Positions 5,819-43,748 of a stretch of DNA of 64,000 nt are shown one piece after another (within the stretch, counting starts at the first letter, position 1; each line of letters begins with the position of its first letter). Under the pieces are notes generated by a model. The model was not told where the DNA came from, did not search any database, and saw nothing but the letters and a program-made list of their open reading frames with translations. A program made the position numbers and the translations under genes. Source of the DNA: Actinomycetes bacterium (GTDB taxonomy: Bacteria; Actinomycetota; Thermoleophilia; BMS3ABIN01); contig JAJYLW010000011.1 in assembly GCA_021787475.1 (NCBI GenBank), forward strand, positions 2,741 to 66,740, in the 5' to 3' direction.

Positions 5819-5846
5819 CCTTAATCTTTCCAAATCCTTACAGTTG

Positions 5847-27774: not shown

Positions 27775-27837
27775 AGCCGATGAGCATCATGCTGCCGCCA
27801 CGTCTGGCCGCGCAGAAACAGACATCATCCTGCCCGA

Positions 27838-28833
27838 TCAACCTCCAATCTGTGACATAGTCCGAGCAACGGCAAGCTCTTCCCGTCGCCGGTCAAACTT
27901 TTTGCTATTCATGGAATCAATTATAACGTTCTTAAGTTCATCACGGTCCCCATTTATAAAAGAACGCACGTCAACTTCTGCATCAGAAAAAAGACAATTG
28001 CGCAATTTCCCGTCTGCGGTCAAACGCAGCCGGTTGCAGTTGTTGCAAAAATGGTCGCTCATTGAGCTGATAAAACCAATTGTCCCTTGCGCGCCTGCGT
28101 ATCTGAAATAGCGGGCGGGGCCACCGCCCGGCGGCGAGTCGACCGGCCTTAAATCGCCAAGCGTCCGCAGCCGGTCAAGAATTTTTTCCCGGGGGATAAA
28201 TTTCCGGATCCCCATCCCCGCCCCAATTGGCATGGACTCTATAAAACGGACATGCACAGGCCTCTCCCGTGCCAAGGCCACGAAATTCTGAAGCTCCTGT
28301 TCAATTCCCGGAATCATGACAGCATTTACCTTTACAGGGGAAAATCCCAGCTCAAGCGCCTTTTCCAGCCCGGCAAGTACAGGCGCCAGCGAAGCTCCCC
28401 TGGTTGCCTGCGAAAATCTTTCAGGCTCCATGCTGTCCAGGCTGATATTAAGGCGAGTGAGTCCGGCTTTTTTTAGCTCGTCTGCATATCTGCCCAGCAA
28501 TGCTCCATTGGTCGTGAGCGACAGGTCCTTAATGCCCGGAACCAGAGCCAACCGCTTGATCAGCGCTGGACATCCAGGGCGCACGAGCGGTTCACCGCCC
28601 GTTATGCGGACCCGGGTAATGCCCAGGCTGGCCGCCACTTCTGCAAAACGGATAATCTCCTCGTAGCTGAGAATCTCCGCCGGCGCCTTGAAGGCGATTC
28701 CTTTAGGAGGCACGCAGTAGCGGCAGCGGAAATTGCAGCGGTCGGTGATGGAAATGCGCAGATAATCTATAATCCGCCGCTGAGGGCTGTTGACTTTTGT
28801 GCTTCTTTTAGCTCTTCTGCAAGACGTCAGCAT
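27838..28833 (-). CDS. moaA: GTP 3',8-cyclase
   Basis: LRISITDRCNFRCRYC, FCNNCNRLRL, C-terminal MSQIGG. Confidence 0.95.
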   Translation of the reverse strand: MLTSCRRAKRSTKVNSPQRRIIDYLRISITDRCNFRCRYCVPPKGIAFKAPAEILSYEEIIRFAEVAASLGITRVRITGGEPLVRPGCPALIKRLALVPGIKDLSLTTNGALLGRYADELKKAGLTRLNISLDSMEPERFSQATRGASLAPVLAGLEKALELGFSPVKVNAVMIPGIEQELQNFVALARERPVHVRFIESMPIGAGMGIRKFIPREKILDRLRTLGDLRPVDSPPGGGPARYFRYAGAQGTIGFISSMSDHFCNNCNRLRLTADGKLRNCLFSDAEVDVRSFINGDRDELKNVIIDSMNSKKFDRRREELAVARTMSQIGG

Positions 28834-29998
28834 TGATTCCTCGCACAGCAAAATGGAGGCCATAACGGTGCAGCAGAAAATCAGCGAAACCACTCACATC
28901 ATCAAGATCGAAAACCGGGGCCGCTGCGGCCGCGTCGCGGCGGTCCGATATTACCGCCAGCAGCTCTTCTTCCGGGCAGGCTAAAGAACAGCTCCTCTGG
29001 CTGCGGGAGACTTCCACCCTGTCGGCGGCAAATCGTTTAAAGCCCTCGGCCAAAATGATGTCGACGGGCCTGTCAATGCGGTCCACCAGTTCCTCAAGGC
29101 TTGTTTCACGCCGGGCGGTCTCCAGGATAGCCAAAGCATCAGGCGAAGTAATGGCGACTGAATGGGCGCCCGCATGAGCTATCCGCCAGGTGTCCGTTCC
29201 CGCGCGGTCAATTTCAAACCCGTGCGAGTCGTGCTTCAGGTACGCGGTGCTGATGCCCCTGAATTTAAGCTCCTGCACCAGTTTTTCCAGAAACGTGGTC
29301 TTGCCTGAATCTTTTTTCCCAACGAAACAGACAACGGGACGGGCGCCGTATCGCAATCCGGCCGAGCCTGCCCGCTGGCGGTGCTTGAGTACTTTGGGGT
29401 AAAGTGCGCGGGCTACTTTCAGCTCTGTACCATCGTTCACATTTATAAACACCTGGAAGGGATCGCAACGGGCGGCTATTTCTCCGGTCTCAACGTACCT
29501 GGTGCTGACGCTGTCGAGCAGGCGCCCGATAGCCAAATCATTGCTCTCAATATGAGCCTGTATTCTTGACAGGCACGACTTTGAATATAGCGCCAGTAAC
29601 GGTTCGCGTCCTCGCCGGCTCAGCGGTACGACGGCATCATTCTCCAGCGGAAAGGAGGCCAGCAGTTCCGCCAGGGCCGGTTCAGCAAAAGGCATATCGC
29701 ACGCAACCACGAGGCAACGGCGCTGACGCGAAAAAGCAAGAGCTGCGTCAATGCCGACGATCGAAGCATGGAAACTGTAGCGGTCCTCGCAAACCGGCAA
29801 ACCAAACTGCTGATAATCGGCTGCTTCCTTGGCAACAATAAACATCTCATTGGTTGCCAACCGCAACGAATTGATTATGTGAGAGATGAGCGGTTTGCCC
29901 ACAAGCGTCTCCAGCGCCTTGTTACGCTGCATGCGCCTGCTTTGGCCGCCGGCAAGGATAGCCACCGAAAAACCTGATTTTACGCTTTTCCCTTTCAC
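28808..29998 (-). CDS. MobA-MobB fusion (Moco guanylyltransferase plus MGD biosynthesis protein B)
   Basis: ILAGGQSRRM/VVACDMP domain followed by GKKDSGKTT and KHDSHGFEID. Confidence 0.88.
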   Translation of the reverse strand: MKGKSVKSGFSVAILAGGQSRRMQRNKALETLVGKPLISHIINSLRLATNEMFIVAKEAADYQQFGLPVCEDRYSFHASIVGIDAALAFSRQRRCLVVACDMPFAEPALAELLASFPLENDAVVPLSRRGREPLLALYSKSCLSRIQAHIESNDLAIGRLLDSVSTRYVETGEIAARCDPFQVFINVNDGTELKVARALYPKVLKHRQRAGSAGLRYGARPVVCFVGKKDSGKTTFLEKLVQELKFRGISTAYLKHDSHGFEIDRAGTDTWRIAHAGAHSVAITSPDALAILETARRETSLEELVDRIDRPVDIILAEGFKRFAADRVEVSRSQRSCSLACPEEELLAVISDRRDAAAAAPVFDLDDVSGFADFLLHRYGLHFAVRGINADVLQKS

Positions 29999-30010
29999 TT
30001 CCAGCCTTTT

Positions 30011-31237
30011 TTAACCGGGGGCCGACAATAACCGGCGCGTCAATTTAGCGGTTCCGGCCAGGAAGCTGACGCCCATGCCGACAGCCATTCCCAGCGCCAC
30101 ATTGGCCCAGATTAACGACACCACACCGATTGACACCGCAACCAGAATGGCAAATCTGCTATTGAGGCTCAATACCAGGCGGGCATGCTCAACGCCTACA
30201 TAAAACAAGAGGGCTCCCAGGACCGGTAGCGGCAGCATCAGGATCAAGTAAACAGCCGAGTTGCCAAACAGCATGGCCGAGGCCACCAGCAATGCGCCGA
30301 TCATCACCGTGGCGCCTCCGGTACGGGCGCCCAGCCGGTAGTGCGCTGTCATGCCGCCGGAACCATGGCAAACAGGCATGCCGCCCAACAGGCCAATCGC
30401 AGTGTTGGCAATTCCAAGCGAAGCGCAAAGAGCCCGCGGCGTCACCCGGCGCGACCGCTGATGAAAATAACTCCGGGAAACGTCGGCGGTGGCAATGACC
30501 GCGTTGCCAAAAGTTACGGGCAATTGCGGGATCACCAGCAGCAAAAAGGCGGCGGTAAAGGTTGCTCGGCCGGGAAGCGGCAGCGACGGCAGGCTCAGGG
30601 TAAAAATTTGCAAGTGCCTGATTACGCTGGGGCCAGCAACAAAAAAGCCCAGGGTCAGCCCCGCGCCAACTATCACTAGAGTCGCCGGGAATCTGCGGTT
30701 GCCGCCAAGAGCCAATAACAACAGCAGGGATCCTGCCGCAATCGCCAAAGCGGCCGCTGGCGGCAGGCCGGGCACGGACACGCCCTTCCATTTCGCCATG
30801 CCGCCAATTCCCATAAATGAAAGACTGCCTTGAATAAGCATTAGTCCTACGGCAAGCTGCACTCCTTTAACCGTCCAGGGCGCAAACAGGTATGACAGGC
30901 GCGAAGCCAGGCCGGTCGCACTCATGAATAACAGGATTATCCCCATAATAATGCTGCCTGCGGCCACCTCGCCGGCGCTGGCGCCGCCGACAATTGCTAT
31001 CGCAGCCATGGCCTTGAGTGGCTGCACTGGCACCGGCAGCCGAAAATAAACGCCCGCGGCAACGTAAGCCAGTCCTGTTAACAGAAAGACCATAAAAGCG
31101 GAAACGCCGCAGATGATAATCAGTCCTGCCATGAGCGGCAGCAGCACGCCGATATCGCCCAGCGCTCCCGCCAGTTCCCGCCGGTTAAACATCAAAGCCG
31201 GTGTGGCGTCTCCGTCGGTGGAAGTATGCTGGTCCAT
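30011..31237 (-). CDS. MOT1-family molybdate transporter
   Basis: ELAGALGDIG, PVPVQPLKA, IPQLPVTFGNA, GMPVCHGSGG. Confidence 0.85.
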   Translation of the reverse strand: MDQHTSTDGDATPALMFNRRELAGALGDIGVLLPLMAGLIIICGVSAFMVFLLTGLAYVAAGVYFRLPVPVQPLKAMAAIAIVGGASAGEVAAGSIIMGIILLFMSATGLASRLSYLFAPWTVKGVQLAVGLMLIQGSLSFMGIGGMAKWKGVSVPGLPPAAALAIAAGSLLLLLALGGNRRFPATLVIVGAGLTLGFFVAGPSVIRHLQIFTLSLPSLPLPGRATFTAAFLLLVIPQLPVTFGNAVIATADVSRSYFHQRSRRVTPRALCASLGIANTAIGLLGGMPVCHGSGGMTAHYRLGARTGGATVMIGALLVASAMLFGNSAVYLILMLPLPVLGALLFYVGVEHARLVLSLNSRFAILVAVSIGVVSLIWANVALGMAVGMGVSFLAGTAKLTRRLLSAPG

Positions 31238-31857
31238 TAGCCTGAAGTCACCTCAGCTTCCACATCTGGACTATATATACGTGTGAAATAACCACCCTCA
31301 GCACACGGCTTACAAAGGGTAACGCCTGAACGCCGGACTTCCCGCCGATCCTGAACGGCATTTCCACAATTGCTGCACTCTACGCGGGAAACAGGGCTGC
31401 CGGGCATGTCCTGCCGCGGGACCTCAATGCTGACATCTTCAAACTCAAACAGCTCATCATCGGTCATGACCTCGTAAGCCTGCTGCTGGCGCTCGTATTT
31501 GTCCTGGATGCCTGGTGCGTACTTGAAGGCCAGTTCCCTTGCCTGTTCCCGCGCCACGACCCGCACCGCCTTGCCGGTTTCAAGGTTCAGGAAGCCGGCG
31601 GCCATAATACCGTGATCAACAATTTTGAGCGTTCTTTTTCCCACGCGGCAACCGGTGACGCTCATGACTGCGTCAGCCGCGCAGCGGTCTATCTCAACGT
31701 AAACCATCAGTTGCTTGCGCCAACGATCAGAGAGCGGATCATCAATTCCAATCCTCTTGAGGCCGGCCCTGGCCAACCTCACTCCCAGGGTTTGGCCCGG
31801 ACAGCCCTCTCCATGGAAAGCCGCCGATTCGGCCAGATGCTCTTTTAGCGTCTTCAT
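31237..31857 (-). CDS. FmdE-family protein with C-terminal zinc finger
   Basis: FHGEGCPGQTLG, EIDRCAADA, C-terminal CSNC...CKPC. Confidence 0.85.
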   Translation of the reverse strand: MKTLKEHLAESAAFHGEGCPGQTLGVRLARAGLKRIGIDDPLSDRWRKQLMVYVEIDRCAADAVMSVTGCRVGKRTLKIVDHGIMAAGFLNLETGKAVRVVAREQARELAFKYAPGIQDKYERQQQAYEVMTDDELFEFEDVSIEVPRQDMPGSPVSRVECSNCGNAVQDRREVRRSGVTLCKPCAEGGYFTRIYSPDVEAEVTSG

Positions 31858-31867
31858 GACAGGCTTC

Positions 31868-32935
31868 CTAACAACCTTTGCCGAACGGACAAACAGGATA
31901 CCTGCACTCAGGGCAATCAAGACACATGCCGCCATGGCCCAGGCGGGCGATATCGGCGCTTGTGATGGTTTCCCCGGCAAGCACCCGCGGCAGGATGAGG
32001 TCAAATATCGTGCGTGGATGATGAATGCCGCAGGCCGGCACACCCAGCACCGGCGTGCCGTCCCCGAAATAGCCGACCATAAACATCGATCCCGGCAAGA
32101 CAGCGGAACCATACGCAGTAATGTCGGCGCCCGCCGCGCGTGCCGCCAGCGGGGTCACATCGTCAGGGTCGACCGACATTCCGCCCGTCATCACGACAAG
32201 GTCAGCGCGGTTGTTCCTGACCCTCGCCAGGGCCGCCCCGATCTGCTCCACGTCATCGGGACATTTCATTACTTCCACGACCGCAGAGCCAAGGGCAGCC
32301 ACTTTTTCCCTGACCACCGGCTCAAAAGCATCATTGATTCTGCCACTGAACACCTCGTTTCCGGTTATGACCAATGCCACGCGCGCCTGGCGCAAAGGCA
32401 GCACTGAGACAATGCCGCCCGCCGCCTCCGCAATCGCAACTGCATCATGTACCGGCTTCTTATCAACAACCAGCGGGATGGCGCGTGTGCCCGCCACGAC
32501 CTCGCCTTTGGCCACAACCGTGTTGTTATGGCGTGTTGCGCACATGACTGCGCCGACGCCATTGAACCGCTCCAGCGCCTCGACGTTGACCTTCAGGACG
32601 CCGCCAATTTCGGCTGCTATGTCAATTTTCCCCTCTCTGGGATCGGGCTTAAAATTCGCGTTTGTCCCGGCAATAGCTTCGGCCATCATGACCGCCGCGT
32701 CGTTTTCATGCATTTGGTCTTCGTTGATCTGCAGGACATATAAATGCTCTTTGCCCAGATCCATCAGCTTTTCCACATCCGCGCGGCTGACAACATGGCC
32801 CCTCCTAAACCGCGCCCCTTTATAGCCACTGACAGGATTCACCTCGGTGATATCATGGCTGAGCACGGTGCCGACGGCTTCTGTTACGGAAATTACCATT
32901 TGCTCTGTTTCACACATGCTTCCCTCCGCTTTCAA
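31868..32935 (-). CDS. MoeA-like molybdopterin-binding protein
   Basis: AVGTVLSHDITE, ITGNEV, TGGMSVDPDD, PGSMF. Confidence 0.8.
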   Translation of the reverse strand: MKAEGSMCETEQMVISVTEAVGTVLSHDITEVNPVSGYKGARFRRGHVVSRADVEKLMDLGKEHLYVLQINEDQMHENDAAVMMAEAIAGTNANFKPDPREGKIDIAAEIGGVLKVNVEALERFNGVGAVMCATRHNNTVVAKGEVVAGTRAIPLVVDKKPVHDAVAIAEAAGGIVSVLPLRQARVALVITGNEVFSGRINDAFEPVVREKVAALGSAVVEVMKCPDDVEQIGAALARVRNNRADLVVMTGGMSVDPDDVTPLAARAAGADITAYGSAVLPGSMFMVGYFGDGTPVLGVPACGIHHPRTIFDLILPRVLAGETITSADIARLGHGGMCLDCPECRYPVCPFGKGC

Positions 32936-32944
32936 CCGTGATGG

Positions 32945-33319
32945 TTATGACAAATTTGCATAGCGCCCAGCCAAATGAAGCGGTTTTGATGTCTGGAAAA
33001 TGTCCTTGAACCGTTTATCAACCATCTCATCGATTCCGGACTCTAGGCTCTCGTACATTATTAGAAAATGACGCGCGTCTTCCGTGAGTGTCGCGCCGCC
33101 GCCGCCGGCCCCACCCGTTCGTGTCCTCACCAGATTCAGTCCCAGCCTCTTTTCCATCGCCTTGACATAGCCCCACGCCCGCCGGTAGGAAATTCCTGTC
33201 TCTATGGCGGCCCTGTTAATCGAACCGTGCCTGTCGATGGCCCTCAGCAGCAAGGAACGCCCCTTGCTAAATACGGGCTCTCCATCCACTTCAAGCCAGA
33301 TTTTTGACCGAATCTCCAA
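32945..33319 (-). CDS. ModE-family HTH regulator (no TOBE domain)
   Basis: GSINRAAIETGISYRRAWGY, GGAGGGGATLT. Confidence 0.88.
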   Translation of the reverse strand: MEIRSKIWLEVDGEPVFSKGRSLLLRAIDRHGSINRAAIETGISYRRAWGYVKAMEKRLGLNLVRTRTGGAGGGGATLTEDARHFLIMYESLESGIDEMVDKRFKDIFQTSKPLHLAGRYANLS

Positions 33320-33391
33320 CCTTCTGCCAGAGTCACGTCACCCTATCAAATTTAAACAAATGCCCAACTCCTGCCGCAACAGCGCCAAGCG

Positions 33392-34024
33392 CTAAACCAT
33401 CCCGGCCAGGTACTCCGCTTCGCACCGCACCCAATACTCCACGAATTTGCCCAGCCCTTTTAAATAGCATGTGCGGGCATTGCTGACAATGTCTTTCGCA
33501 AAGCCGGGCACCCATTTTAACAGGTGATCTTCAATAAAGTATTTTTGAACTTTAATCAAATCCGGCCGGTGATCTTCATCGGCGACCAGCATCAGACTGC
33601 ACAATCTGAAGAGAAAATCACATTCAGTGCCAAAATGATCTTCCAGCTCGCCGGCAGTTGTTTCGAACCCGTACCTCGCGTACAGCTTCCGCACCGCCAC
33701 GGTAGCCTCTTGGTTGACCAATCGGTATATTGATGTATAAACGGACTCCCACGGCGGCGCCTTGACGTGGCCGGGGCCGTGGAAGAGCTGATAGAAATCC
33801 TGCCGGACATCATCAAGATTGCCGGACGCGAGTTCGCTTTGGGCGCATTCGCTCATCTCTTTGACGCCGGGAAGGTCTATCAGCTCTTCCAGGAGCCTGC
33901 TCTCCAACAGGCCGGCAAAGAACTCTTCAGTCGGTTCGTGAAGAAAAGCACGCCTGAGGAAGTCGTAAATTACAACCCTGCTATGTGTTTCCGGTTCTAT
34001 CGCTTTCTCCTCACCGACTAACAT
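33392..34024 (-). CDS. TorD/DmsD-family chaperone
   Basis: APPWESVY, ELEDHFGTEC, HLLKW. Confidence 0.9.
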   Translation of the reverse strand: MLVGEEKAIEPETHSRVVIYDFLRRAFLHEPTEEFFAGLLESRLLEELIDLPGVKEMSECAQSELASGNLDDVRQDFYQLFHGPGHVKAPPWESVYTSIYRLVNQEATVAVRKLYARYGFETTAGELEDHFGTECDFLFRLCSLMLVADEDHRPDLIKVQKYFIEDHLLKWVPGFAKDIVSNARTCYLKGLGKFVEYWVRCEAEYLAGMV

Positions 34025-34033
34025 CCTTTACTC

Positions 34034-34585
34034 CTATTGTTCGCTTGGCGGGATGATCCGTATGGACGGATGCGTGTACTTTGGGTCAGCAAAATAGTTT
34101 ATGTGCTTGCCGGTGTCGCCCGCAAGCCCGGAAAGCTTGCCGTACTTGAGCACCCGGGCCATGCATGTCAGCACGCATGCCGGCGGCAGGCCGGCGTCAA
34201 TCCGCTGATAGCACATGTGGCACTTTTCAACTTTCTTGGTGACAGGATTGAACTGGGGCGCTCCATACGGGCATGCCTCCATGCAGCGCTTGCAGCCGTT
34301 GCAGACATTGGAGTCCAGGATGACGATGCCGTCAGTATCTCTTTTGGTTATCGCGCCTACCGGGCATGATTTTATGCAAGCAGGGGACTCGCAGTGGTTG
34401 CACGACATTGACATGAAGTTCTTGAACGGCGTCGGATACGTGCCGCCGTCAAACGTCTCGACCCGGCGGTACTCGGCTCCCAGCTCAACCTGGTTCTGCT
34501 GTTTGCAGGCTCCCTGGCAGGCCCGGCAGCCGATGCAATGCTCCATGTCTATCTGAAAGCCGAGCTGATTAGGATTAGCAGCCAT
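34034..34585 (-). CDS. 4x[4Fe-4S] electron-transfer subunit (DmsB/PsrB-like)
   Basis: CIGCRACQGAC, CNHCESPAC, CNGCKRCMEAC, CHMC...PAC. Confidence 0.93.
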   Translation of the reverse strand: MAANPNQLGFQIDMEHCIGCRACQGACKQQNQVELGAEYRRVETFDGGTYPTPFKNFMSMSCNHCESPACIKSCPVGAITKRDTDGIVILDSNVCNGCKRCMEACPYGAPQFNPVTKKVEKCHMCYQRIDAGLPPACVLTCMARVLKYGKLSGLAGDTGKHINYFADPKYTHPSIRIIPPSEQ

Positions 34586-34603
34586 GAATAATCATCCTCC
34601 TTT

Positions 34604-37213
34604 CTAAGCCTTGTAGACTTTTACGGCCACTTCCTTGCTGATTCCCTGGCCGGATATTGCTTCAGGCTTGCCGGGCATCAAACGCCCCGCAGCCGTGCCT
34701 TTGCCTTCGGCGACTGATCCCAGGGCCCAGTGGCCGAAACCGTGCATGACGCCCACGGTGGTAGGCTCAATTCCCTCGACGGGGAAAGCGGTGGCGTCCA
34801 CTGTGGCAATGGGAGACTCGATCTTGATGGCGTCGCCGTTCTTGATGCCCATGCTGTCGGCAACCGCCTTGTTGATCAGGCAGGGGTTGGTTCCCTTCAT
34901 CTCCATTAGCCAGACATTGTTGAACGTGCGCGTATGAGTGTGTTCCGTCTGCTTCCAGGAAACCATGTAGAACGGGTAGCCGTCGTAGCCGAGCTGCCCG
35001 GGAGCATCGACCGGATCGCGGTAAACCGGCAGGGCGTCGTACCCCGCCGTTTGCAGAGACTTGTAACCAGAGATGGCGTCAGCTGTGCCGGACCCGGCGT
35101 CGGTGCCGCTGTAGGAATTGAGGACGATCTTCTGGTTGCCGCCGATAACAGTCTTTAATTTGCTGACAGTTCCGTACTTGGTGCCCCAGTTACTGACATT
35201 CGCCACCAGATCATTCAGAGTTGGCCAAACCGCTCCTGGCAGCGCCTTAAGAGCATTCAGGGCCGCATCGCAGTCGGCCATATTTGTGGGGTCTCCCGAG
35301 GGATACAGGTTTCCCTTGATCGTGGAATTCAGCAGCAGCTGCTGGCCGAGATATTGTGTTTCTGTCATGCTGAAATCACCGGGGGCCGTGCTGCCGGCGT
35401 CGCCCTTTAGCCCCAACCTCCGGCCCAGCTCCATAATGATGCCAATTTCGTCGATGTAGGGATTCCCCACCCAGGAGCTGACGGTTGGCTGCCGCAGGCC
35501 GAAACTGTAAAACGTTACCCAGTTGACCGTGAAATCGTAGCGTTCCAGAAAGTTGGCGCCCGGAAGGATAATGTCAGCCATTTGGGCAGTCTCGCTCAGA
35601 TGCGTGTCGATCGAGACAATGTATTCCAGCTTGTTCAAGCCATCAATGTTCTTCTGGACATTTGATGAGTTCATCACCAGATTGTCAAAGACAAAGATGG
35701 CTGCCTTGGGCCGGTTTGTATCAGCGTCGGAGGCGCTGCTGCCCAGATATGGGTACTTGGCATAGTAATCATCCGCGGACAGGTCAGAATCATAAATAAC
35801 GTCGCGGGCGCGAAGGACAATTCCCGATCCATGACCGAGAGGGAAACCGTTTTGACTAAGCGGCTTTCCCAGGCCGTCGATGCGGGGGCGACTCAGAGAA
35901 GCGTCATGGGTATTGGTTGCCGTCCGCGCCGATGGACCCAGGCGGTTGGTGAAGACAGCGTTGCCCTTGTTGCCTATCTGGCCGGTCAGGGCCAGCAGCG
36001 CCGAGATGGCCCGGCCGCCCTGGGTGCCGTTGGTGTGATGCCCCGGCCCCGACCAGGTGTCGATCACTGCCGGATAATTGCTGGACTCGCCAATCTCGCG
36101 GGCAAGGCTGACAATCGTGGCGGCCGGCACGCCGGTTTTGCCTTCGGCCCAGTTGGGATCCTTGGGGACGCCGTCGCTGACGCCGGTGACGTAATCGCTA
36201 AACGCCTGAAAGCCAATCACGTTGGCATTGACGAAGGCGACATTATACAGGTTCTCATTGATAAGCACGTTGGCAAGCGCCAGCGCCAGGGCCCCGTCGG
36301 TGCCCGGCTTGATCGGCACCCACTGGCCGCCGTTTCTGCAGGCCGCCGCCGCCGTGCTGCTGAAAACGGGGTCAACGACCACCATTCGCCCGCCGTTGTC
36401 AAAGAATTGGCGCGCAATCCGGGGCAGGTGAGACCACTTGGTGGCCGAAAGGAAATTCCAGCCGAAGATCAGAGCGTACTTGGCATGGGCGAAATCCGGC
36501 ACGGGCCGCTCGTCGCCAAAGGGAACGCTGAAGGCCCTCTTCCTGGCGACGTCACACAAGCTGGTGTGCTGGATATAGTTTGGCGTGCCGAACATCTTGC
36601 AAAAATCCTGCTGCGGATTATTGCCGGTGATGCCGTCCTCGGAGAAGAAAAGCAACTGGTGGGCGCCATTGCCGCTTTGCTCGGCCTTAAGGCCCTGCAG
36701 ATACGTCGTGATCTCGTTCAGGGCATCATCCCAGGTGATGGGATTGAAAACCGCGCCGACGCCACGGGGACTGCTCGGGTCCCGCTTCATGGGCGTCTTG
36801 ATGCGGTCCGGGTCGTAAAGCGACTTGTAGCCGGAGTTGCCCTTGGGGCACATGCCTGCGCCCCATCCGGTGGTGGCGTTAACAAAGTCAGCCGCGTCAC
36901 TGGTATCATTAATACAGATGTTGGCGACGCCGGCGGCGTTGTACGGATTGGGTTCGATTTTCCTAACCGCGCCGTCGACGACATTTACGTTGATGCCCGA
37001 GCAGCCGCCACACATGTTGCAGGCGCTGTATATCCAGGTTCCGGCGTCGTCGGCTTTCGCCTTGTCGGAATCGAAAACCTGCCGCAGCAGACCCCCGGGC
37101 AACAGGGTGCTTGCCACCGCTGTCCCGCCGATGGCGCTTCCCCATTGCAGAAAGGCGCGGCGGGAAACAGCCGGATTTAATTTCATGCCTCCCTTGCTGT
37201 TCACATCTGTCAC
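34604..37213 (-). CDS. Tat-exported bis-MGD molybdopterin oxidoreductase catalytic subunit (Cys-ligated, Psr/Phs/Ttr/Arr-type; substrate unknown)
   Basis: SRRAFL Tat motif, N-terminal Fe-S Cys motif, GTPNYIQHTSLC, PGTDGALAL, DIILP, C-terminal HTHTRT. Confidence 0.9.
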   Translation of the reverse strand: MTDVNSKGGMKLNPAVSRRAFLQWGSAIGGTAVASTLLPGGLLRQVFDSDKAKADDAGTWIYSACNMCGGCSGINVNVVDGAVRKIEPNPYNAAGVANICINDTSDAADFVNATTGWGAGMCPKGNSGYKSLYDPDRIKTPMKRDPSSPRGVGAVFNPITWDDALNEITTYLQGLKAEQSGNGAHQLLFFSEDGITGNNPQQDFCKMFGTPNYIQHTSLCDVARKRAFSVPFGDERPVPDFAHAKYALIFGWNFLSATKWSHLPRIARQFFDNGGRMVVVDPVFSSTAAAACRNGGQWVPIKPGTDGALALALANVLINENLYNVAFVNANVIGFQAFSDYVTGVSDGVPKDPNWAEGKTGVPAATIVSLAREIGESSNYPAVIDTWSGPGHHTNGTQGGRAISALLALTGQIGNKGNAVFTNRLGPSARTATNTHDASLSRPRIDGLGKPLSQNGFPLGHGSGIVLRARDVIYDSDLSADDYYAKYPYLGSSASDADTNRPKAAIFVFDNLVMNSSNVQKNIDGLNKLEYIVSIDTHLSETAQMADIILPGANFLERYDFTVNWVTFYSFGLRQPTVSSWVGNPYIDEIGIIMELGRRLGLKGDAGSTAPGDFSMTETQYLGQQLLLNSTIKGNLYPSGDPTNMADCDAALNALKALPGAVWPTLNDLVANVSNWGTKYGTVSKLKTVIGGNQKIVLNSYSGTDAGSGTADAISGYKSLQTAGYDALPVYRDPVDAPGQLGYDGYPFYMVSWKQTEHTHTRTFNNVWLMEMKGTNPCLINKAVADSMGIKNGDAIKIESPIATVDATAFPVEGIEPTTVGVMHGFGHWALGSVAEGKGTAAGRLMPGKPEAISGQGISKEVAVKVYKA

Positions 37214-37320
37214 TTAGCTCACCTCTTTCATTTCGCTCTCGGCGCCGCGGATGCTATGGCGCATTTTTTCTGCCAGACTGGATTTTGCTTTCACTTGTTT
37301 CATCGCTTGCCTGACCCTGG

Positions 37321-37476
37321 CTACGATCCTGGCGCCGGCGGCACCGTCACGCTGCACTGCCAGTTGGAGCACTCGCGGGTGACCTCGGCAATGTTGCCAA
37401 GCTGTGTGACAGCCGGCGGCGCATACTCTTTCAGCTTGCCTGTAGCCGGTTCAGGTTTTTTCATTAAGGCTTCCAT
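37321..37476 (-). CDS. 51-aa peptide with lasso/RRE-type RiPP leader (not in ORF track)
   Basis: MEALMKKPEPATGKLKEYAPPAVTQLGNIAEVTR-ECSNWQCSVTVPPAPGS; YxxPxVxxxGxxxxxTx; GGAGAAAGG RBS. Confidence 0.75.
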   Translation of the reverse strand: MEALMKKPEPATGKLKEYAPPAVTQLGNIAEVTRECSNWQCSVTVPPAPGS

Positions 37477-37539
37477 GTCAGCCCTTTCTCCGTTCATTTT
37501 CAGAAAAGCAATCTCGCTTTTGACTTCTTGTGGAGATGG

Positions 37540-38478
37540 CTATGGCTTGGAAGGCCAGTATTGCGTTTGGTTGTCATCATTGACAGCGTTGGCGTAGACC
37601 GTTGTATAAAAAAAGCCGACTCCGCCTGGTACTTGATACACCAGCGTGAAGTTGGTGGAACCGCCTTCGGCCACATCGCCCAAATTAAGCGGCATCGGGG
37701 TGGCCACGCCAACGCCGTTCGTTGACAGGACCTGCGAAATATTCAAACCATTCGCAGTACCCGAACCGCTGTTGGCGATGGAGAAGTCCACTGACAGCTT
37801 CCCGGCATTGTAATCACTAAGGTTGGCCCAGTAGATATTGCCGCGGTTCAGCCCGAGAGCTGCTGCGCCGCTTAGATACCAAGCTCTGCCACCGTGGCAG
37901 CCGTAGCAGTCGCTGGGGCCGATATTGGCGTTATTAACATACGGCGCCTTGCTCGCATGCTGGCTCTGCCAGTCAGAGTGGCAAGAAATGCAGTCCTGCG
38001 TTGCCCAGGCGGGGTCCATCGTCGCCGGGAAAGGACTATGGCATTTTGCACACAAACCGATATCAACCTGCCTCCGGACAGAAGACGCGGATTCCTCCCT
38101 GACGTCCACCGACTGGTGGCAGGTAGTGCACGTGAACGAGAGCAGGTTTGAAGTCAGATGCGCCTTGTGAGGAGCGTCGTAATATTGATTGTGAACGGCA
38201 TCGAACAAAGACTGGTCGTCGGGGCTGCTGACCTTGTCTCCGTGGCAGCTGATGCAATCGGAGTACTGTTGAATGCCGGCGTTGGTATGGTAGTCAGCCA
38301 CATCCGAATGACATGATACGCACTCGGAATAGTTGTAATGTGGGGCGTCCGGTGCAGCCGAAGTAGCATACAGAACGCTTGCGCCAACAGCAAACACAAA
38401 GATTATCGTCAGGGCCACTATAACAGCGGCCCTTTTCTTCAAGATGGCGTCCTTTGCCTTAAAGATCAATTCCTTCAC
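37540..38478 (-). CDS. Hexaheme cytochrome c with C-terminal beta-sandwich domain
   Basis: Six CxxCH motifs (CVSCH, CISCH, CTTCH, CAKCH, CISCH, CYGCH); N-terminal signal/anchor. Confidence 0.92.
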   Translation of the reverse strand: MKELIFKAKDAILKKRAAVIVALTIIFVFAVGASVLYATSAAPDAPHYNYSECVSCHSDVADYHTNAGIQQYSDCISCHGDKVSSPDDQSLFDAVHNQYYDAPHKAHLTSNLLSFTCTTCHQSVDVREESASSVRRQVDIGLCAKCHSPFPATMDPAWATQDCISCHSDWQSQHASKAPYVNNANIGPSDCYGCHGGRAWYLSGAAALGLNRGNIYWANLSDYNAGKLSVDFSIANSGSGTANGLNISQVLSTNGVGVATPMPLNLGDVAEGGSTNFTLVYQVPGGVGFFYTTVYANAVNDDNQTQYWPSKP

Positions 38479-38895
38479 CTCCCGGTAAATTCAACTCTTT
38501 TAATTGCTGCAGAGCCCGTAAGCTCATATCCCGCATAGTTCGTAGCTTTTGAAACCCTTTTCCTTTAGCTGTTATCCACCTCCTCACCATTGGGATCGTA
38601 CGACCCGTTACCCGCAGCCCATGAATTGCAAATGCGCGTGTTTCGATTTTCACAATTCAGCACTTTTGTTCTCATTATGTCACTGATTATCACAATTAAT
38701 CTTAAAATGGGATTCAATAGTACATTTCTTAAATTGAATTTACTATCAGGGAATTCCCTGATTTTTACCCCACCTAGGTATATTTCGCGATATTAATAAC
38801 AGTTGGTCTTGATATTGTCAAATGATGTGGATAATATGCACAGTTGATGCGGTCATAGCCGCGGGCATATAAAAGCACATAGCAAAACCAAGGAA

Positions 38896-40416
38896 ATGAA
38901 AATGTTGGGAATGATAGATGCAAAATCCGCGAGAACTTGCATCAGGCGCCTGGTGACGCCATCGTTATTCATTATTCTGCCGTTGATAACACTCTTTCTA
39001 TTACTGCTGATAACAGCACCGGCGCGGTTATCCGCCGCCAGCAGCGAGTACGATTACTACTTTCCTTGGTACGACAACAATGCCGCCTGGGGGATGAACG
39101 GTGACTGGATCCTTATCTCCAACCGCGGCACGGGCAACGCAGATGTAAGCATCGAAGTAGTCGGGAAAACAGTGGCTTTATTTGACGCCGCTCATGACAC
39201 CGCTCTCGCGCCTGGCGTCCATGTCGAGTGGCACTCGCCAACCACTCTTACAAACGGCCCGGTGAAAGTAACGTCGACGAACGGCGAGCCCTTGAACGTC
39301 AGTCAGCGTGTGCTTTACAAAGATTCTTTCCAGGAGATTAATTCCGTACCCGGCATGGGGCTGGAAAGCGACTACCTCTTTACCTGGTATGACAATATCG
39401 CTGCCTGGGGCATGAATAGGGACTGGATCTGCGCAGCAAACACAGGCGACAAGCCCACCATGATTAATATCTACGTCGGCGACGTAACCGACAGCGCCAC
39501 GCCGGTGGCAGCGCTCGGCCCGCTGGCGCCGGGCCAGCATATTGAGTGGCAGTCGCCTGCGCGCCTTGCCAACGGCCCTGTCAGAGTAGCGTCCCCGTCG
39601 GGCGAGCCTTTTCTTGCCGGCCAGCGGTCGCTATTTAAGGACAGTTTCGCCGAAGTCCCCGGGGTGGCGGCTTCAAAACTGGGCGCGGGAGCCGTGTTTC
39701 CCTGGTATGACAAACAGTCAACGGGGATGAACGGCGACTGGGTGCTGGTGGCCAATAAAGATGATTTCAATCCGGTCCGCGTTCAAATCAGCATCGGCGG
39801 CGAGATTATGAATGACCCGCAAAATCCCGGCAACAATTTCTTTGTAATTGCCCCCCGGGGCCGCATTACGCCCCAGTTCCCCGGACGCATGGGAGGGCCG
39901 GTATACGTCACTTGCCAGGATTGCAATCAGGGCGAGAAATTGATTGTAAGTCAGAGAACAATATTTAAGGATTCCTTCCACGAAGAGGACGGGATTCTCC
40001 TCGAGCCCGCCGGCACCTTCGGCAGCAGCACCTGGACCTATCCCATTCCCGTGCCCGGACCGGGCCAGACAATACCATGGCAGCCATCAAATGATATCGG
40101 CGCCGACGCCTGGTTCAACTGGTATGACTCCAAACCGGCCGACAATATGGCTGGCGACTGGATTTTGATCGCCAACCTGGGCGGTACGCCGGCCGATGCC
40201 AACATTACCATCGGTGGTACAAGTATGATCAATCCGGCGACCGGCAATACTCACTTTCCCATCGGGGCGGGAAGCATCATAACGCCTCATTTCGCCAACC
40301 TGATGAAGGGGCCGGTCTTCGTCGGCTGCTTTAATTGCACCTCCGGCCAACTCCTGCTCACCAGTCAAAGGGTTATTTACAAGAACAGCTTCAACGAACT
40401 GGCAGGAACGCCGTAA
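38896..40416 (+). CDS. Secreted protein made of four WYD repeats
   Basis: Signal peptide; four WYD...DW[IV]...GPV...[SG]QR...SFxE units. Confidence 0.85.
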   Translation: MKMLGMIDAKSARTCIRRLVTPSLFIILPLITLFLLLLITAPARLSAASSEYDYYFPWYDNNAAWGMNGDWILISNRGTGNADVSIEVVGKTVALFDAAHDTALAPGVHVEWHSPTTLTNGPVKVTSTNGEPLNVSQRVLYKDSFQEINSVPGMGLESDYLFTWYDNIAAWGMNRDWICAANTGDKPTMINIYVGDVTDSATPVAALGPLAPGQHIEWQSPARLANGPVRVASPSGEPFLAGQRSLFKDSFAEVPGVAASKLGAGAVFPWYDKQSTGMNGDWVLVANKDDFNPVRVQISIGGEIMNDPQNPGNNFFVIAPRGRITPQFPGRMGGPVYVTCQDCNQGEKLIVSQRTIFKDSFHEEDGILLEPAGTFGSSTWTYPIPVPGPGQTIPWQPSNDIGADAWFNWYDSKPADNMAGDWILIANLGGTPADANITIGGTSMINPATGNTHFPIGAGSIITPHFANLMKGPVFVGCFNCTSGQLLLTSQRVIYKNSFNELAGTP

Positions 40417-40500
40417 AGCAGGATCATTAAGTAAGAATCTGCCTCAAAGGGCTATCGTGCGAGGCTGAGCGAAGGCCATAGGCGACGCCAATTTGAAGAG

Positions 40501-41268
40501 CTAGGGCGCTGTTTGCCCTGCTATCTCCCGCCGCAGCTGTGCCAGTTTGCTCCTGCTAACCGGTATCCTGGACCGGCGGGCGTCGTTGAGCTCCACAAGA
40601 TACGATCCGCGCTTTAAAGAAAACAGCTTGCCAGCTTTGGCCAGGTTGACAATGAAGCTTTTATGCACGCGCATGAAGCCCTGCGGTAGCTGGCTTTCAA
40701 CCTGGCTGATGTTGCGGCGCAAGACATATTTGTCATCATTCGTATGAAGATAAGTGTTATTCCTGTCCGCCGCCGCAAAAAAAATACTGGCAAGATCAAC
40801 AAAAATTGTCTCTCTTCCTTTGCGGGCCATTATCTTGCCGCCGTCCGGAGAAGGTGCCGGCTGCCGGGCCGCCGCCCGCTTGGCGCCGGACCGCTCCAGA
40901 GCGACCTTGACGCGCGCCGCCAGCTCCTTGACGCTGAAAGGCTTGGTAATATAGTCCTCCGCCCCCAGTTGAAACCCCAACAATTTCGAAATCTCTTCGC
41001 TCTTGGCCGACAGAAGGATTACCGGTATGCCTCGGGTTGCAGGATCGTTTTTAATGTGCGAAAGGACTTCCCAACCATCAACCTCGGGCATCATAATATC
41101 GAGGATAATGGCGTCAGGATTTGCGGCTTTGATCTTGGCCAAAGCATCCCGTCCGCTCTGGGCGCATTCAGTCTGATATCCTTCGCTCTCGAGGTTGAGG
41201 CAGACTATGTCGCAGATCCCGGGTTCATCATCAACAACAAGAATCTTCTTGGACAACGTCATTTCCAT
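40501..41268 (-). CDS. Response regulator, REC plus LytTR
   Basis: VVDDE, LDIMMP, KPF; FMRVHKSFIVN, IPVSR. Confidence 0.9.
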   Translation of the reverse strand: MEMTLSKKILVVDDEPGICDIVCLNLESEGYQTECAQSGRDALAKIKAANPDAIILDIMMPEVDGWEVLSHIKNDPATRGIPVILLSAKSEEISKLLGFQLGAEDYITKPFSVKELAARVKVALERSGAKRAAARQPAPSPDGGKIMARKGRETIFVDLASIFFAAADRNNTYLHTNDDKYVLRRNISQVESQLPQGFMRVHKSFIVNLAKAGKLFSLKRGSYLVELNDARRSRIPVSRSKLAQLRREIAGQTAP

Positions 41269-41298
41269 TCTTTCACCGCCTCCATCACTGTATTCAAC

Positions 41299-42834
41299 TC
41301 AATTAACAATAATATCACTGATTGTCTTTGCTCCGGCATCAGTCTCGTCCCTGTCAAGAACAGGCAAAGGCAAAGCAATGGAAAAAACTGTTCCCTTGCC
41401 GACGCGGCTTGCCACGCTAATAACCCCCCCGTGGCCCTCGACAATTCCTTTGGCAACGGCAAGTCCCAGGCCCATCCCCGGATGTTTGCGGGTTGTGGGA
41501 CTTTCTACTTGATAAAACGGCGTGAACAGGTATCTTAACTCTTTCTTGGGAATGCCGGTGCCCGTGTCGGAAATTTCAACGATATCCTGACGTTTTTTTG
41601 CATCGAAATAGGCATGAACCTTCACTGTACCGCCCTCTGAAGTAAAATCAATCGCGTTGGCGACCAGATTGTGAAACACCTGGTGCAGGCGAGTCTCGTC
41701 GCCGGCCAAGTGCGGTAATCCGTCGGGAATGTCCCTTTCAAGGTTAAGCTTGCGCTCGGAAGCCTCCAGGGCAAATTCATCAATCACGGCATCGAGCACC
41801 TTGCTCAAAGCCAGCTCCTGCCGCTCGACGACGAGGCTTCCCCGTTCAATTAATGAAAAATCGAGAGACTTGTCAACAATATCGGACAATCTGTCCACGC
41901 TGTCCATGACCAGGGCCAGTTTTTCTCGCTGCCTGACATTTGCTTTCCCCAGATTCCCGGCCAAAATGGTTTCGATGTAACCCCTGATTAGAGACAAAGG
42001 GGTCTTCAATTCATGGGACACCACAGCGATGAACCCGGATTTCATGTGATCCAGCTCGCGCAGCTCCTTGTAGGCCTCACGAATGGCTTTGTAATTTCGC
42101 TCTAGTTTCTCATAGGCCACCTTCAGTTCTGATTGGCGCTCCTTAAGGATCTGCGCCATATGATTGAAATCCTGCGACAGTTCGCCCAGCTCATCTTCAG
42201 ACCTAACCGGTATTTTAAAATCAAGATTTCCTTCAGAAATCTGTTTAGCGCTGGCGGTCAAGCTCCGCACCGGCTTCACGATCATTCGCATGGCCACAAA
42301 CGCCATTACTGCAGCCGAAGCGACAATGACAATTAAAAGCAGGCCGGCCAAGGAGAGCACCACCGCCAGAACATTGCTCTTGATGCGGCTCAGGGAAACG
42401 TACATATCAACCCTGCCGAAATTCCTGCCATTAATTGTCAGTGGAACGCTGGTTTTAATCATTCCCGCGCTTTCAGCCGGGGTCTGACTGCCTGCCTGGC
42501 GCGAAGAATGGATCAGCAACTTGCCTGCGGTGTCATAAACTCCCACGTAAACAATTTCCCGCCTTTCGTCCCGCGCCAACACACCGTCAGTGCTGTCCTG
42601 CAAGTCAACAAAATCATTTGTCAACAGATCGGGAAGAGCAGTACCCGCTAGCGTGTTGGCAATTTCCGTTGACGAATTGACCTTTTGATCTACTAGCAGC
42701 GAGTTCATCCTTTCCGTTCCCAGCCCTGATAGCAAGACGCCGGCAAGCGCCATTGTGAGCGAGAGAATAATTACGACCTTCTTGCCCAGCCCAAGGTTAT
42801 TAAAATAATTCCTGAGACGGCGAAAAATAGTCAC
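41299..42834 (-). CDS. HAMP-HisKA-HATPase sensor kinase
   Basis: Two TM helices, DELGELSQDFN, VSHELKTPL, NLVANA, DTGTGI, GMGLGL. Confidence 0.92.
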   Translation of the reverse strand: MTIFRRLRNYFNNLGLGKKVVIILSLTMALAGVLLSGLGTERMNSLLVDQKVNSSTEIANTLAGTALPDLLTNDFVDLQDSTDGVLARDERREIVYVGVYDTAGKLLIHSSRQAGSQTPAESAGMIKTSVPLTINGRNFGRVDMYVSLSRIKSNVLAVVLSLAGLLLIVIVASAAVMAFVAMRMIVKPVRSLTASAKQISEGNLDFKIPVRSEDELGELSQDFNHMAQILKERQSELKVAYEKLERNYKAIREAYKELRELDHMKSGFIAVVSHELKTPLSLIRGYIETILAGNLGKANVRQREKLALVMDSVDRLSDIVDKSLDFSLIERGSLVVERQELALSKVLDAVIDEFALEASERKLNLERDIPDGLPHLAGDETRLHQVFHNLVANAIDFTSEGGTVKVHAYFDAKKRQDIVEISDTGTGIPKKELRYLFTPFYQVESPTTRKHPGMGLGLAVAKGIVEGHGGVISVASRVGKGTVFSIALPLPVLDRDETDAGAKTISDIIVN

Positions 42835-43748
42835 TGGATTACGTGCGCCTTAACCAGATTTGCTTCAAGGCTGCCAACAGAGTTATAGAGGGACTTGTCA
42901 ACGGGAATAAACTTTTCTATCCCCAGTTTTGATAAAATCTGTTTCCCCTGAGGATCTTTGTCCATCCCCGTCAGAACGCTTAACAACTGGTTCCGCAGTT
43001 CGCGGGACATGCCTGGGCGGGTTACCAGGGGAGGGGAACCAAAAGGCGGCGATTCCTCGATTATATCGAGCCCGCTGACGCTGGCCGGATCATTGGCTTT
43101 CATGTAATCATATATGTAGCTGTCGACGGCGACGCCATCGACAACTCCTTCCTTGAGCGCCTTGATGGAATTATCATGATTATTTGCAACTATGATATGG
43201 CTAAAAAAAGCGCCTGGCTGATAACCCAGGTCAACGACGCGGGATTCCGGGTAGAGAGTGCCCGTGAGCGAAATAGGATCACTAAAAGCAAAAGGGTGGC
43301 CGCGCAACTGCTCAAACTTACTGATGCCGCTGCCGCTGCGGGTGACGATATAAGAGTAATATAGGGGTTGCCCATTAACTACGGGCGCTACCAAGGGAGA
43401 CAAATGGAGTTTGTCAAAGGCCTTGATATAGCCGCCGGAACAGAGGATGGCAACGTCGGTGTCTCCGCGCGCCAATAAGTCATTTACTTCTGAATAACTG
43501 CCGGTCTGCTGCAATACCGTCGGATGCCCCGTTTTTTTGGCAATATAATCAAACAGTTGCGAGTAAACCGAATAAGACTCCTTGGGAGTAAACATGCCAT
43601 CGATGGATATGCGGATTTCACTAGCGGCAGCAACAGAGTCTGCGGTGTGCGTCGATGCTCCTCCGTTGTTAGCGCAGGCTGCAATCGAAAGGGCAAGCAA
43701 TAAAGCAGCCAAAAGGGAAAGCGCCAATCTGCGAGGCGAGAGGTACAC
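42831..43748 (-). CDS. PhnD/AioX-like oxyanion-binding lipoprotein
   Basis: Lipobox IAAC; DVAILCSGGY, YYSYIV, FSDPISLTG. Confidence 0.8.
   Translation of the reverse strand: MYLSPRRLALSLLAALLLALSIAACANNGGASTHTADSVAAASEIRISIDGMFTPKESYSVYSQLFDYIAKKTGHPTVLQQTGSYSEVNDLLARGDTDVAILCSGGYIKAFDKLHLSPLVAPVVNGQPLYYSYIVTRSGSGISKFEQLRGHPFAFSDPISLTGTLYPESRVVDLGYQPGAFFSHIIVANNHDNSIKALKEGVVDGVAVDSYIYDYMKANDPASVSGLDIIEESPPFGSPPLVTRPGMSRELRNQLLSVLTGMDKDPQGKQILSKLGIEKFIPVDKSLYNSVGSLEANLVKAHVIQ

Follow-up and report, generated by a model that had tools for sequence, protein, structure and literature searches.

A distinct, widespread clade of cytochrome-coupled respiratory molybdoenzymes with a probable link to arsenic

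The stretch of DNA analysed here, hereafter the window, comprises 64,000 nt of contig JAJYLW010000011.1 from a metagenome-assembled genome (MAG) of an Actinomycetes bacterium, recovered from a mine-drainage metagenome. It carries a tightly packed operon on the minus strand (38478-33392) that encodes, in order, a hexahaem c-type cytochrome, a 51 aa ORF, the catalytic subunit (A) and iron–sulfur (FeS) subunit (B) of an exported molybdoenzyme, and a TorD-like chaperone. We are highly confident that this enzyme represents a real, distinct, cytochrome-coupled clade. We infer both the substrate and the direction of the reaction: the substrate is probably an arsenic oxyanion, whilst the fuller statement, in which arsenate is reduced to arsenite as a terminal step with electrons delivered through cytochromes, has in our judgement an even chance of being correct. 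The genes of the operon are as follows.

37540..38478, minus strand: hexahaem c-type cytochrome (312 aa; six CXXCH motifs; N-terminal hydrophobic helix)
37321..37476, minus strand: conserved short ORF (51 aa; 58 aa if an upstream ATG is the start)
34604..37213, minus strand: catalytic subunit A, of the Mo/W-bis(pyranopterin guanine dinucleotide) type (869 aa; twin-arginine translocation (Tat) signal; predicted metal ligand Cys220)
34034..34585, minus strand: FeS subunit B, four clusters (183 aa; Fer4_11; four Cys groups; signal peptide absent)
33392..34024, minus strand: TorD/NarJ-family maturation chaperone (210 aa; PF02613 at 1.5e-28)

The original prediction had described a Tat-exported catalytic subunit, an FeS subunit, TorD and a hexahaem cytochrome, with no gene for PsrC, NrfD or cytochrome b. 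All four components are present, and no NrfD, DmsC or cytochrome b gene was found in or beside the operon. The genome (1.84 Mb, 98.7% complete) encodes a single NrfD, on contig C16 within a different molybdoenzyme cluster, and no DmsC anywhere. The possibility that this sole NrfD is the missing subunit of the operon enzyme was rejected, as it sits inside a complete second molybdoenzyme cluster. Subunit B scored 180 bits against a DmsB-like profile (cut-off 214) and is presumably exported together with subunit A.

Subunit A carries the twin-arginine motif SRRAFLQW and matches PF04879, PF00384 and PF01568 (Molybdop_Fe4S4, Molybdopterin and Molydop_binding) above cut-off. These domains, the Tat signal and the aligned ligand Cys place it in the Cys-ligated respiratory DMSO reductase (MopB) superfamily. 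Within that superfamily it fell below every NCBIfam cut-off: PhsA, 279 bits against 694; DmsA/YnfE, 221 against 778; ArrA (NF041714), 175 against 1600; QrcB, 126 against 440; and TtrA, 82 against 1750. The closest solved structures are Thermus PsrA (1.6e-50) and Shewanella ArrA (5e-40). Although the enzyme would work in the manner of a respiratory Arr/Psr-type enzyme, score, motif and tree place it outside Arr, Arx, Psr/Phs, Ttr/Srd and Qrc.

The active site was compared with that of ArrA from Shewanella ANA-3, using the active-site positions given in PMC13685797. The aligned positions are listed with the ArrA residue first.

H189, aligned with H216 of subunit A: kept
C193, aligned with C220: kept; the Mo-ligand position of ArrA and PsrA
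K198, aligned with K225: kept
R163-G164-R165-Y166, aligned with S191-E192-D193-G194: replaced
Y210, aligned with R236: replaced

The ArrA motif set (RGRY with H189, C193, K198 and Y210) is thus incomplete in subunit A, and the ArxA motif GRGWG is absent from it. The active-site strings that had been quoted as unlike ArrA were found as quoted, with S-E-D-G in place of RGRY and the HxxxC...K arrangement retained. Across 74 family members, E192, H216, C220, R224 and K225 are invariant, D193, D221 and R236 occur in 73, and a C-terminal block, H758-T-H-x-R-T-x-N-N766, is also invariant. To judge from the alignment, the conserved Lys and Arg residues would suit an anionic substrate. The motif for the FS0 iron–sulfur cluster reads C-x-M-C-G-G-x-(S/T)-G throughout the clade and CNMCGGCSG at residues 65-73 of the window protein, in which Cys 1, 2 and 4 are present (C65, C68 and C122) and an extra Cys lies one residue before the third position. 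The canonical motif would be C-x2-C-x3-C-xn-C. FS0 may be a 3Fe-4S cluster or a Ser/Thr-ligated 4Fe-4S cluster; the motif is compatible with either.

A pattern scan of species-representative genomes recovered at least 174 relatives, and the neighbourhoods of 80 were retrieved. These species genomes, at least 174 in number, represent over 20 phyla, and nearly all are MAGs recovered from groundwater, deep mines, hot springs or sediments. In a collection of 5.8 billion proteins, homologues were mostly unnamed metagenomic sequences, some of which carry the automatic Joint Genome Institute (JGI) label 'thiosulfate/polysulfide reductase chain A'. For phylogeny, the references were those of Data Set S1B of Leu et al. 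2020 (PMC7327174), which cover the first 400 residues and hence the N-terminal half, and which do not include the antimonate reductase AnrA or the selenite reductase SrrA. With these references the family formed one clade both in a quick tree of 96 sequences (Shimodaira–Hasegawa-like approximate likelihood ratio test, SH-aLRT, 100) and in a careful tree of 57 sequences (ultrafast bootstrap/SH-aLRT 100/99). It was separate from Arr/Arx (100/98), Psr/Phs (98/95), Ttr/Srd (100/98) and SreA. The proposal of an uncharacterized branch of the DMSO reductase family is supported by this clade and by the missed curated cut-offs, and the tight clustering with a characterized enzyme that would have spoken against it did not occur.

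One member of the clade had already been noticed without a name: the Methanoperedens protein ASW-6_02220, left as an 'Unk' branch in PMC7327174, bears the family motifs and groups inside the clade. We found no functional study of the clade in the literature, and the two phylogenies of Wells et al. do not name it. NaoABC was considered as a literature counterpart and set aside, being NapA-like. A report on arsenic-dependent methane oxidation treats canonical ArrA/ArxA with NrfD (PMC13685797).

The operon structure is conserved over large distances. A 94%-identical, fully syntenic locus is present in one Actinomycetes MAG, and relatives that are 66-67% identical (a Thermoleophilia MAG and 'Bacterium BMS3Abin01') have the same order of sensor, cytochrome, A, B, TorD and molybdenum module. 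At 40-47% identity, the cytochrome-A-B-TorD core recurs in Candidatus Methanoperedens, a 'Thaumarchaeota' MAG, Armatimonadota, Nitrospirota, Thermodesulfobacteriota and others. Of 31 related loci, 22 have the order cytochrome-A-B-TorD, and they come from Actinomycetota, Methanoperedens, Armatimonadota, Nitrospirota and other groups; a chaperone gene follows B in 24 of the 31 cytochrome-clade loci. Such recurrence indicates that the arrangement is not due to chance.

Three groups were resolved within the family: an actinobacterial hexahaem group (100/100), a tri/pentahaem group (90/91) and an NrfD-linked group (99/98). In the NrfD-linked group the gene order is B (~290 aa), NrfD (9-10 helices, PF03916 at 2.8e-49), A, with no cytochrome; a cytochrome gene lies directly upstream of A in 22 loci from distant phyla. 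Partner type tracks the phylogeny of A, which leads us to propose that cytochrome and NrfD are alternative third subunits of one enzyme family. This pattern supports the view that the cytochrome replaces the membrane NrfD subunit. Exchange of partners has precedents in ArrAB with CymA, in TorCA and in FdhABC3, and has not previously been described for this clade.

The window cytochrome has CXXCH motifs at residues 53, 75, 117, 143, 163 and 191 and a single 22-residue hydrophobic helix near the N-terminus (approximately residues 17-38). It matches the Pfam families Cytochrome_C7 and Cytochrom_c3_2 above cut-off (PF14522, 42.9 bits, cut-off 24.8; PF14537, 42.6 bits, cut-off 25), and no match to the NapC/NirT/NrfH signature (PF03264, TIGR03153) was detected in Pfam or NCBIfam. 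A trihaem core is shared by the whole family, comprising the invariant C75/C78/H79, C117/C120/H121 and C143/C146/H147 together with the free histidines H64, H104 and H107. The three invariant CXXCH motifs and three invariant free His point to bis-His ligation of this core; with closely spaced motifs, such ligation and the profile match, the protein has the attributes of a class III (c3/c7-type) cytochrome.

The form of the cytochrome differs between groups: in Nitrospirota and allies it is a 3-haem protein of ~117 aa with a cleavable AxA signal peptide, in Methanoperedens a 5-haem protein with a lipobox-like N-terminus, and in the actinobacterial group a 6-haem protein with an N-terminal helix and a C-terminal domain. 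On the strength of the c7/c3 match and the lack of a NapC/NirT match, the family cytochrome is best read as an electron-transfer subunit and not as a conserved quinol oxidase, and in diderm members it is not membrane-bound. The multihaem 'wire' of the original prediction accordingly holds for one half of the clade, in which it is conserved, but not as a general anchor, given the soluble periplasmic trihaem form of the Gram-negative members. In an AlphaFold2 model of the window protein, a helix spans residues 2-38 and a beta-sandwich residues 208-308 (predicted local distance difference test score, pLDDT, ~90), whilst the haem part is unreliable (pLDDT 40-60). Foldseek matched the beta-sandwich to generic Ig-like folds and to nothing more specific. 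About 20 paralogous copies of this Ig-like domain, the C-terminal ~100 aa of the cytochrome, occur in large proteins of the same genome, and it may be a cell-envelope module of a single-membrane organism.

The operon is preceded by genes for a three-component sensor.

40501..43748, minus strand: three-component sensor, upstream of the operon (domain and PDB matches)
43748..42831, minus strand: ArrX/AioX-like periplasmic binding protein, PhnD fold (best PDB matches ArrX and AioX)
42834..41299, minus strand: HAMP-HisKA histidine kinase (by domains)
41268..40501, minus strand: REC-LytTR response regulator (by domains)

The best matches of the binding protein are Chrysiogenes arsenatis ArrX (6x6b; 5e-45, 157 bits) and AioX (1e-28, 104 bits), and it is far less similar to PtxB, HtxB and PhnD. 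Badilla et al. (PMC5908839) defined an arsenic-sensing pocket of Y88, C106, Y131, S161, S163, H192 and D210 (AioX numbering), and found that, of ten oxyanions tested, AioX and ArxX bind arsenite only, whilst ArrX binds arsenate and, weakly, phosphate. The pocket of the window protein reads Y-C-Y-S-T-H-D against Y-C-Y-S-S-H-D in AioX, so that six residues are identical and one is a Ser-to-Thr exchange. This pocket, including the Cys that is absent from PhnD, is kept in 19 of the 21 binding proteins adjoining family members, the window's included. The AioX-like sensor reported near the operon is present, and its pocket and closest structures place it in the AioX/ArrX arsenic-sensing subfamily. 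The same sensor trio lies upstream of the operon in two related loci (L001 and L002), and sets of binding protein, histidine kinase and response regulator occur in ~20 loci. Elsewhere in the family the regulators are of the LuxR type, as in ArrR, in 15 loci, and of the sigma-54 NtrC type, as in AioR/ArxR, in the Nitrospirota group.

Beyond structural, regulatory and molybdenum-cofactor genes, the main recurrent neighbours of family members are arsenic-resistance families, with the exception of an ABC-transporter ATPase (8 loci). An acr3 gene lies within 10 kb in 9 of the 80 loci (TIGR00832, 378-467 bits, cut-off 283), and in 5 of these 9 it is the only acr3 copy of a genome of 2.8-3.9 Mb; by chance, a single-copy gene would be found so close to a given locus (±10 kb) in well under 1% of cases. 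ArsC of the low-molecular-weight phosphatase type occurs in 6 of the 80 loci and ArsR in ~10. The linkage spans both subclades and at least five phyla, and its arrangement varies. In a Dissulfurispiraceae locus (L037), a divergent arsR is followed on one strand, with minimal gaps, by acr3, an MtrA-like gene, cytochrome, A, B, TorD and arsC. In Acidimicrobiia (L071), acr3 immediately precedes B-NrfD-A, and in Bacteroidota (L083) it precedes the sensor genes. Locus L081 has arsR divergent from the cytochrome gene, together with ArsC, Acr3 and an ArsP permease with a DGC-domain protein, and locus L015 has an ArsM-like methyltransferase, ArsC, Acr3 and ArsR beside the sensor. Just upstream in diderm members, 6 loci have a gene for a phosphate-selective porin (PF07396) and 7 have one for another beta-barrel protein, which fits uptake of a phosphate-like anion. 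The arsenic link of the clade is new here. The MtrA-like gene of locus L037 (4593-5282; PF04208, 2.8e-37), which lies between acr3 and the cytochrome gene and resembles a corrinoid protein, is an unexpected component of an arsenic operon.

The sensor pocket, the regulator types, the ars linkage and the porins, all of them contextual evidence, together make arsenic the favoured substrate. The original prediction had allowed an oxyanion of As, Sb, Se, Te or S; the sensor subfamily and the ars linkage in several phyla narrow this towards arsenic. Several observations weigh against arsenate respiration in particular, or against arsenic altogether. Residues R165 and Y166, which bind arsenate in ArrA, are replaced by the invariant acidic pair E192-D193, so that the site has a chemistry unlike that of Arr and might act on a different substrate. 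The third FS0 position is Ser/Thr in ~85% of members and Cys in ~13%, and the cluster could therefore be a higher-potential 3Fe-4S centre as in arsenite oxidase, which would favour oxidation. No ars genes adjoin the operon in the window or in its three closest relatives (L007-L009), and the genome's own ars operon is on a different contig. The tree of binding proteins, which contained no ArxX sequence, is a star without a split into ArrX-like and AioX-like branches, so the sensed species could be As(V) or As(III). Sensors resembling ArrXSR have been reported beside an SreABC-like enzyme (PMC13444090), and the sensor alone hence does not prove arsenic. The phylogenetic references span 400 residues only, the genome encodes cytochrome bd, and the sequencing runs that contain the sequence are three DNA runs from one mine-drainage study, with no RNA runs among them.

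We considered whether the enzyme could instead be an anaerobic arsenite oxidase, passing electrons from As(III) through B and the cytochrome to another acceptor, and regard this as unlikely. The missing third FS0 Cys in most members recalls arsenite oxidase (Aio), which has a high-potential 3Fe-4S cluster, and the sigma-54 regulators of the Nitrospirota members are of the AioR/ArxR type. The NrfD subclade is also present in Nitrospira, Methylomirabilota, Tepidiforma and other lineages, which we take to be aerobic or nitrate/nitrite-respiring, and the reported bidirectionality of Arr and Arx in vitro (PMC13685797) leaves room for either direction. However, the genome has neither a haem-copper oxidase nor a nitrate reductase to serve as electron acceptor, and the organisms that carry the enzyme are menaquinone-based. 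By established redox potentials, menaquinone is an uphill acceptor for electrons from As(III). For an organism that relies on menaquinone and lacks a chain to a high-potential acceptor, arsenite oxidation is difficult to accommodate. Moreover, K225, R224 and R236 suggest an anionic substrate, whereas the Thioalkalivibrio ArxA lacks that Lys, and the sensor scores higher against ArrX (157 bits) than against AioX (104).

Another oxyanion, such as antimonate, selenate, selenite, tellurate, vanadate or thioarsenate, with arsenic-type sensors and ars genes co-located because the elements occur together, seems to us just as improbable as the oxidase. The E192-D193 pair in place of the ArrA arsenate-binding residues would accommodate this idea, as would the mine-drainage source and the fact that ArsR and Acr3 also act on Sb(III). 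It is harder to reconcile with the arsenate-specific ArsC linked in six loci, with porins of a phosphate type that suit a tetrahedral phosphate analogue, and with a sensor pocket matching proteins that, of ten oxyanions, bind arsenite only or arsenate/phosphate only (PMC5908839). Still less likely, in our view, is a reductase of polysulfide, thiosulfate or tetrathionate for which the arsenic context is incidental. PhsA is the best curated profile (279 bits), PsrA the best solved structure, and the JGI names point the same way; many carriers, moreover, belong to Nitrospirota (e.g. Dissulfurispiraceae) and Thermodesulfobacteriota, presumably sulfur-cycling organisms. Yet the PhsA score falls far short of its cut-off (694), the clade lies apart from Psr/Phs (98/95), and no rhodanese or sulfur-carrier genes recur nearby. 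The linkage to a sole Acr3 across several phyla is hard to attribute to chance, and a nearer Psr/Phs-like enzyme, one with NrfD, is already encoded on contig C16 of this genome (352 bits). Two further candidates were discarded: a Qrc-like, non-catalytic MopB protein, since the ligand Cys, chaperone and cofactor module are all present, and phosphite oxidation, which leaves the ars linkage unexplained.

It is possible, though we put this forward tentatively, that the clade constitutes a third, hitherto unrecognized lineage of dissimilatory arsenic oxidoreductases beside Arr/Arx and Aio, with a cytochrome or NrfD as partner. With the same reserve, just short of an even balance, we would attribute to this lineage an active site of its own (the E-D pair with R-K-R), an unusual FS0 and horizontal spread across more than 20 bacterial and archaeal phyla.

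The metabolism of the host sets the frame for any such activity. The genome encodes acetyl-CoA synthase, a selenocysteine formate dehydrogenase and the futalosine route to menaquinone. Searches of the genome found no haem-copper oxidase, no NiFe hydrogenase, no other Arr, Arx or Aio and, among its molybdoenzymes, no NarG-type nitrate reductase. We read the organism as strictly anaerobic and menaquinone-based, with the Wood–Ljungdahl pathway. Matches to PF03264 across the genome were limited to two 7-haem proteins, on contigs C8 and C16, which bear NapC/NirT-family signatures; the C8 protein has membrane helices at both ends. The C8 protein (5769-6938, 389 aa) has a region of the NapC/NirT family at its N-terminus (38 bits) and several membrane helices towards its C-terminus, and is a candidate stand-alone quinol:cytochrome oxidoreductase.

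We infer the formation of the complex and the path of its electrons. In the proposed mechanism, subunit A, with its Mo/W cofactor and FS0, would first be matured by the TorD-like chaperone and then exported by the Tat system with the four-cluster subunit B. On the outer side of the membrane, A and B would dock as a pair on a dedicated multihaem cytochrome c, held here by its N-terminal helix, which would link the enzyme to other c-type cytochromes and not directly to the quinone pool. Electrons could then pass from menaquinol to a NapC/NrfH-type cytochrome (C8 or C16), to the hexahaem cytochrome, to the FeS clusters of B, to FS0, to Mo and finally to arsenate. Such a path would resemble that in Shewanella, where the tetrahaem cytochrome CymA feeds ArrAB. 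The ArrX/AioX-type sensor would turn the operon on through the LytTR regulator.

The only other exported molybdoenzyme of the genome lies at 94697-100985 of contig C16 (locus L088, 4698-10986). Its cluster encodes a 12-haem cytochrome, an FeS protein resembling TtrB/DsrO, NrfD, a PhsA-like subunit whose 352 bits fall short of the cut-off, and the 7-haem cytochrome, which has NapC/NrfH-like and SorB-like parts; it would be an unusual Psr-like complex flanked by two multihaem cytochromes. On contig C9 (8465-11944; locus L089, 2466-5945, minus strand), a single open frame of 1159 aa contains a cytoplasmic domain of the MopB type, similar to PhsA/Fdh (residues ~17-690), followed by a cysteine desulfurase of the NifS/IscS type (~770-1148). 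This frame is either a real fusion or two genes merged in ORF calling.

A molybdenum supply module lies 3' of the operon in the same orientation; its genes were assigned with Pfam and NCBIfam.

27838..33319, minus strand: molybdenum supply module
33319..32945, minus strand: ModE-N-like helix-turn-helix protein
32935..31868, minus strand: MoeA-like gene
32112..31237, minus strand: FmdE (true start probably further downstream)
31237..30011, minus strand: MOT1-type molybdate transporter
29998..28808, minus strand: MobA-MobB
28893..27838, minus strand: MoaA

Its synteny is identical in loci L001 and L002 and partial in L004-L006, L019 and L027. The C-terminus of the 51 aa ORF (...TRECSNWQCSVTVPPAPGS) is conserved at the protein level in L007, L008 and L009, in which A is just 66-67% identical. 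The ORF is restricted to the actinobacterial hexahaem subclade, being absent from the tri/pentahaem and NrfD subclades, and matched no Pfam family; its product may serve as a small subunit or be processed to a peptide. Positions 27000-45000 were scanned with Rfam for a Moco riboswitch or a different RNA within the 326 nt that separate the cytochrome gene from A; the scan returned just a weak chance match to isrG, and a scan for promoters and terminators gave counts no better than those of shuffled sequences. Divergent from the operon, at 38896-40416 on the plus strand, is a gene for a 506 aa secreted repeat protein without a Pfam or NCBIfam family. Its paralogues in the genome number more than 20, repeat proteins that reach 1283 aa and apparently make up a large family of surface proteins.

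Arsenic reaches drinking-water aquifers mainly through the microbial reduction of arsenate, which field studies track by arrA; oxidation is tracked by aioA and arxA. If the arsenic assignment is true, such surveys miss many subsurface organisms, in at least 174 species-level genomes, including Nitrospirota, Chloroflexota, Omnitrophota, Planctomycetota, Actinomycetota and the methane-oxidizing Methanoperedens, and methane-driven mobilization of arsenic gains a second candidate enzyme. For enzymology, the family is a natural experiment in which one catalytic module is coupled to NrfD or to cytochromes of 3, 5 or 6 haems, and in which part of the Arr oxyanion site is kept whilst two basic/aromatic residues are exchanged for an invariant Glu-Asp. 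Whatever its substrate, this is a widespread respiratory enzyme without an assigned function.

Several known systems share parts of this design. The Qrc complex (QrcA multihaem cytochrome, QrcB MopB-like, QrcC FeS, QrcD NrfD) has the same order of cytochrome, MopB and FeS proteins, but QrcB scored 126 bits against 440 and there is no QrcD. The first, second and fourth FS0 Cys residues, the Cys ligand, the TorD chaperone and the full molybdenum-cofactor module of the window system argue for a real catalytic enzyme, unlike QrcB. TorCA/DorCA likewise pairs a periplasmic molybdoenzyme with a membrane-held multihaem cytochrome as its only partner. The pentahaem TorC, however, is a quinol dehydrogenase of the NapC/NirT type, whereas the window cytochrome has no PF03264 match, and TorA lacks FS0 and a B subunit.

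PsrABC/PhsABC (PDB 2vpw) offers the nearest profile and structure and the same logic of A, B and a membrane partner, and the NrfD of the sister subclade resembles PsrC. The family differs from it in its separate clade, in the absence of NrfD from the window, in the B-NrfD-A order of the NrfD subclade and in its arsenic-type context. In architecture the window enzyme also resembles FdhABC3 of Desulfovibrio, a periplasmic Mo/W formate dehydrogenase with a dedicated c3-type cytochrome subunit that works oxidatively, into the c3 pool. Both have a soluble A-B pair, a small class III multihaem third subunit and no membrane subunit, but the catalytic subunit of FdhABC3 belongs to a different clade and has a selenocysteine/Cys formate site.

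The broadest resemblance is to ArrAB(C) and ArxAB(C), which share the Tat-exported Cys-ligated A, the four-cluster B, the TorD-type chaperone, the ArrX/AioX-type three-component sensor, the neighbouring ars genes and the equivalents of H189, C193 and K198. Against this, the window enzyme lies outside the Arr/Arx clade (ArrA, 175 bits against 1600), RGRY is replaced by S-E-D-G/H and Y210 by Arg, FS0 has Ser/Thr at the third Cys position, and the cytochrome gene is part of the operon, its product being c7/c3-like rather than of the NapC/NirT type. The closest working analogue is ArrAB of Shewanella sp. ANA-3, which has no ArrC and is fed by the tetrahaem CymA, so that there too a multihaem cytochrome, and not NrfD, delivers the electrons.

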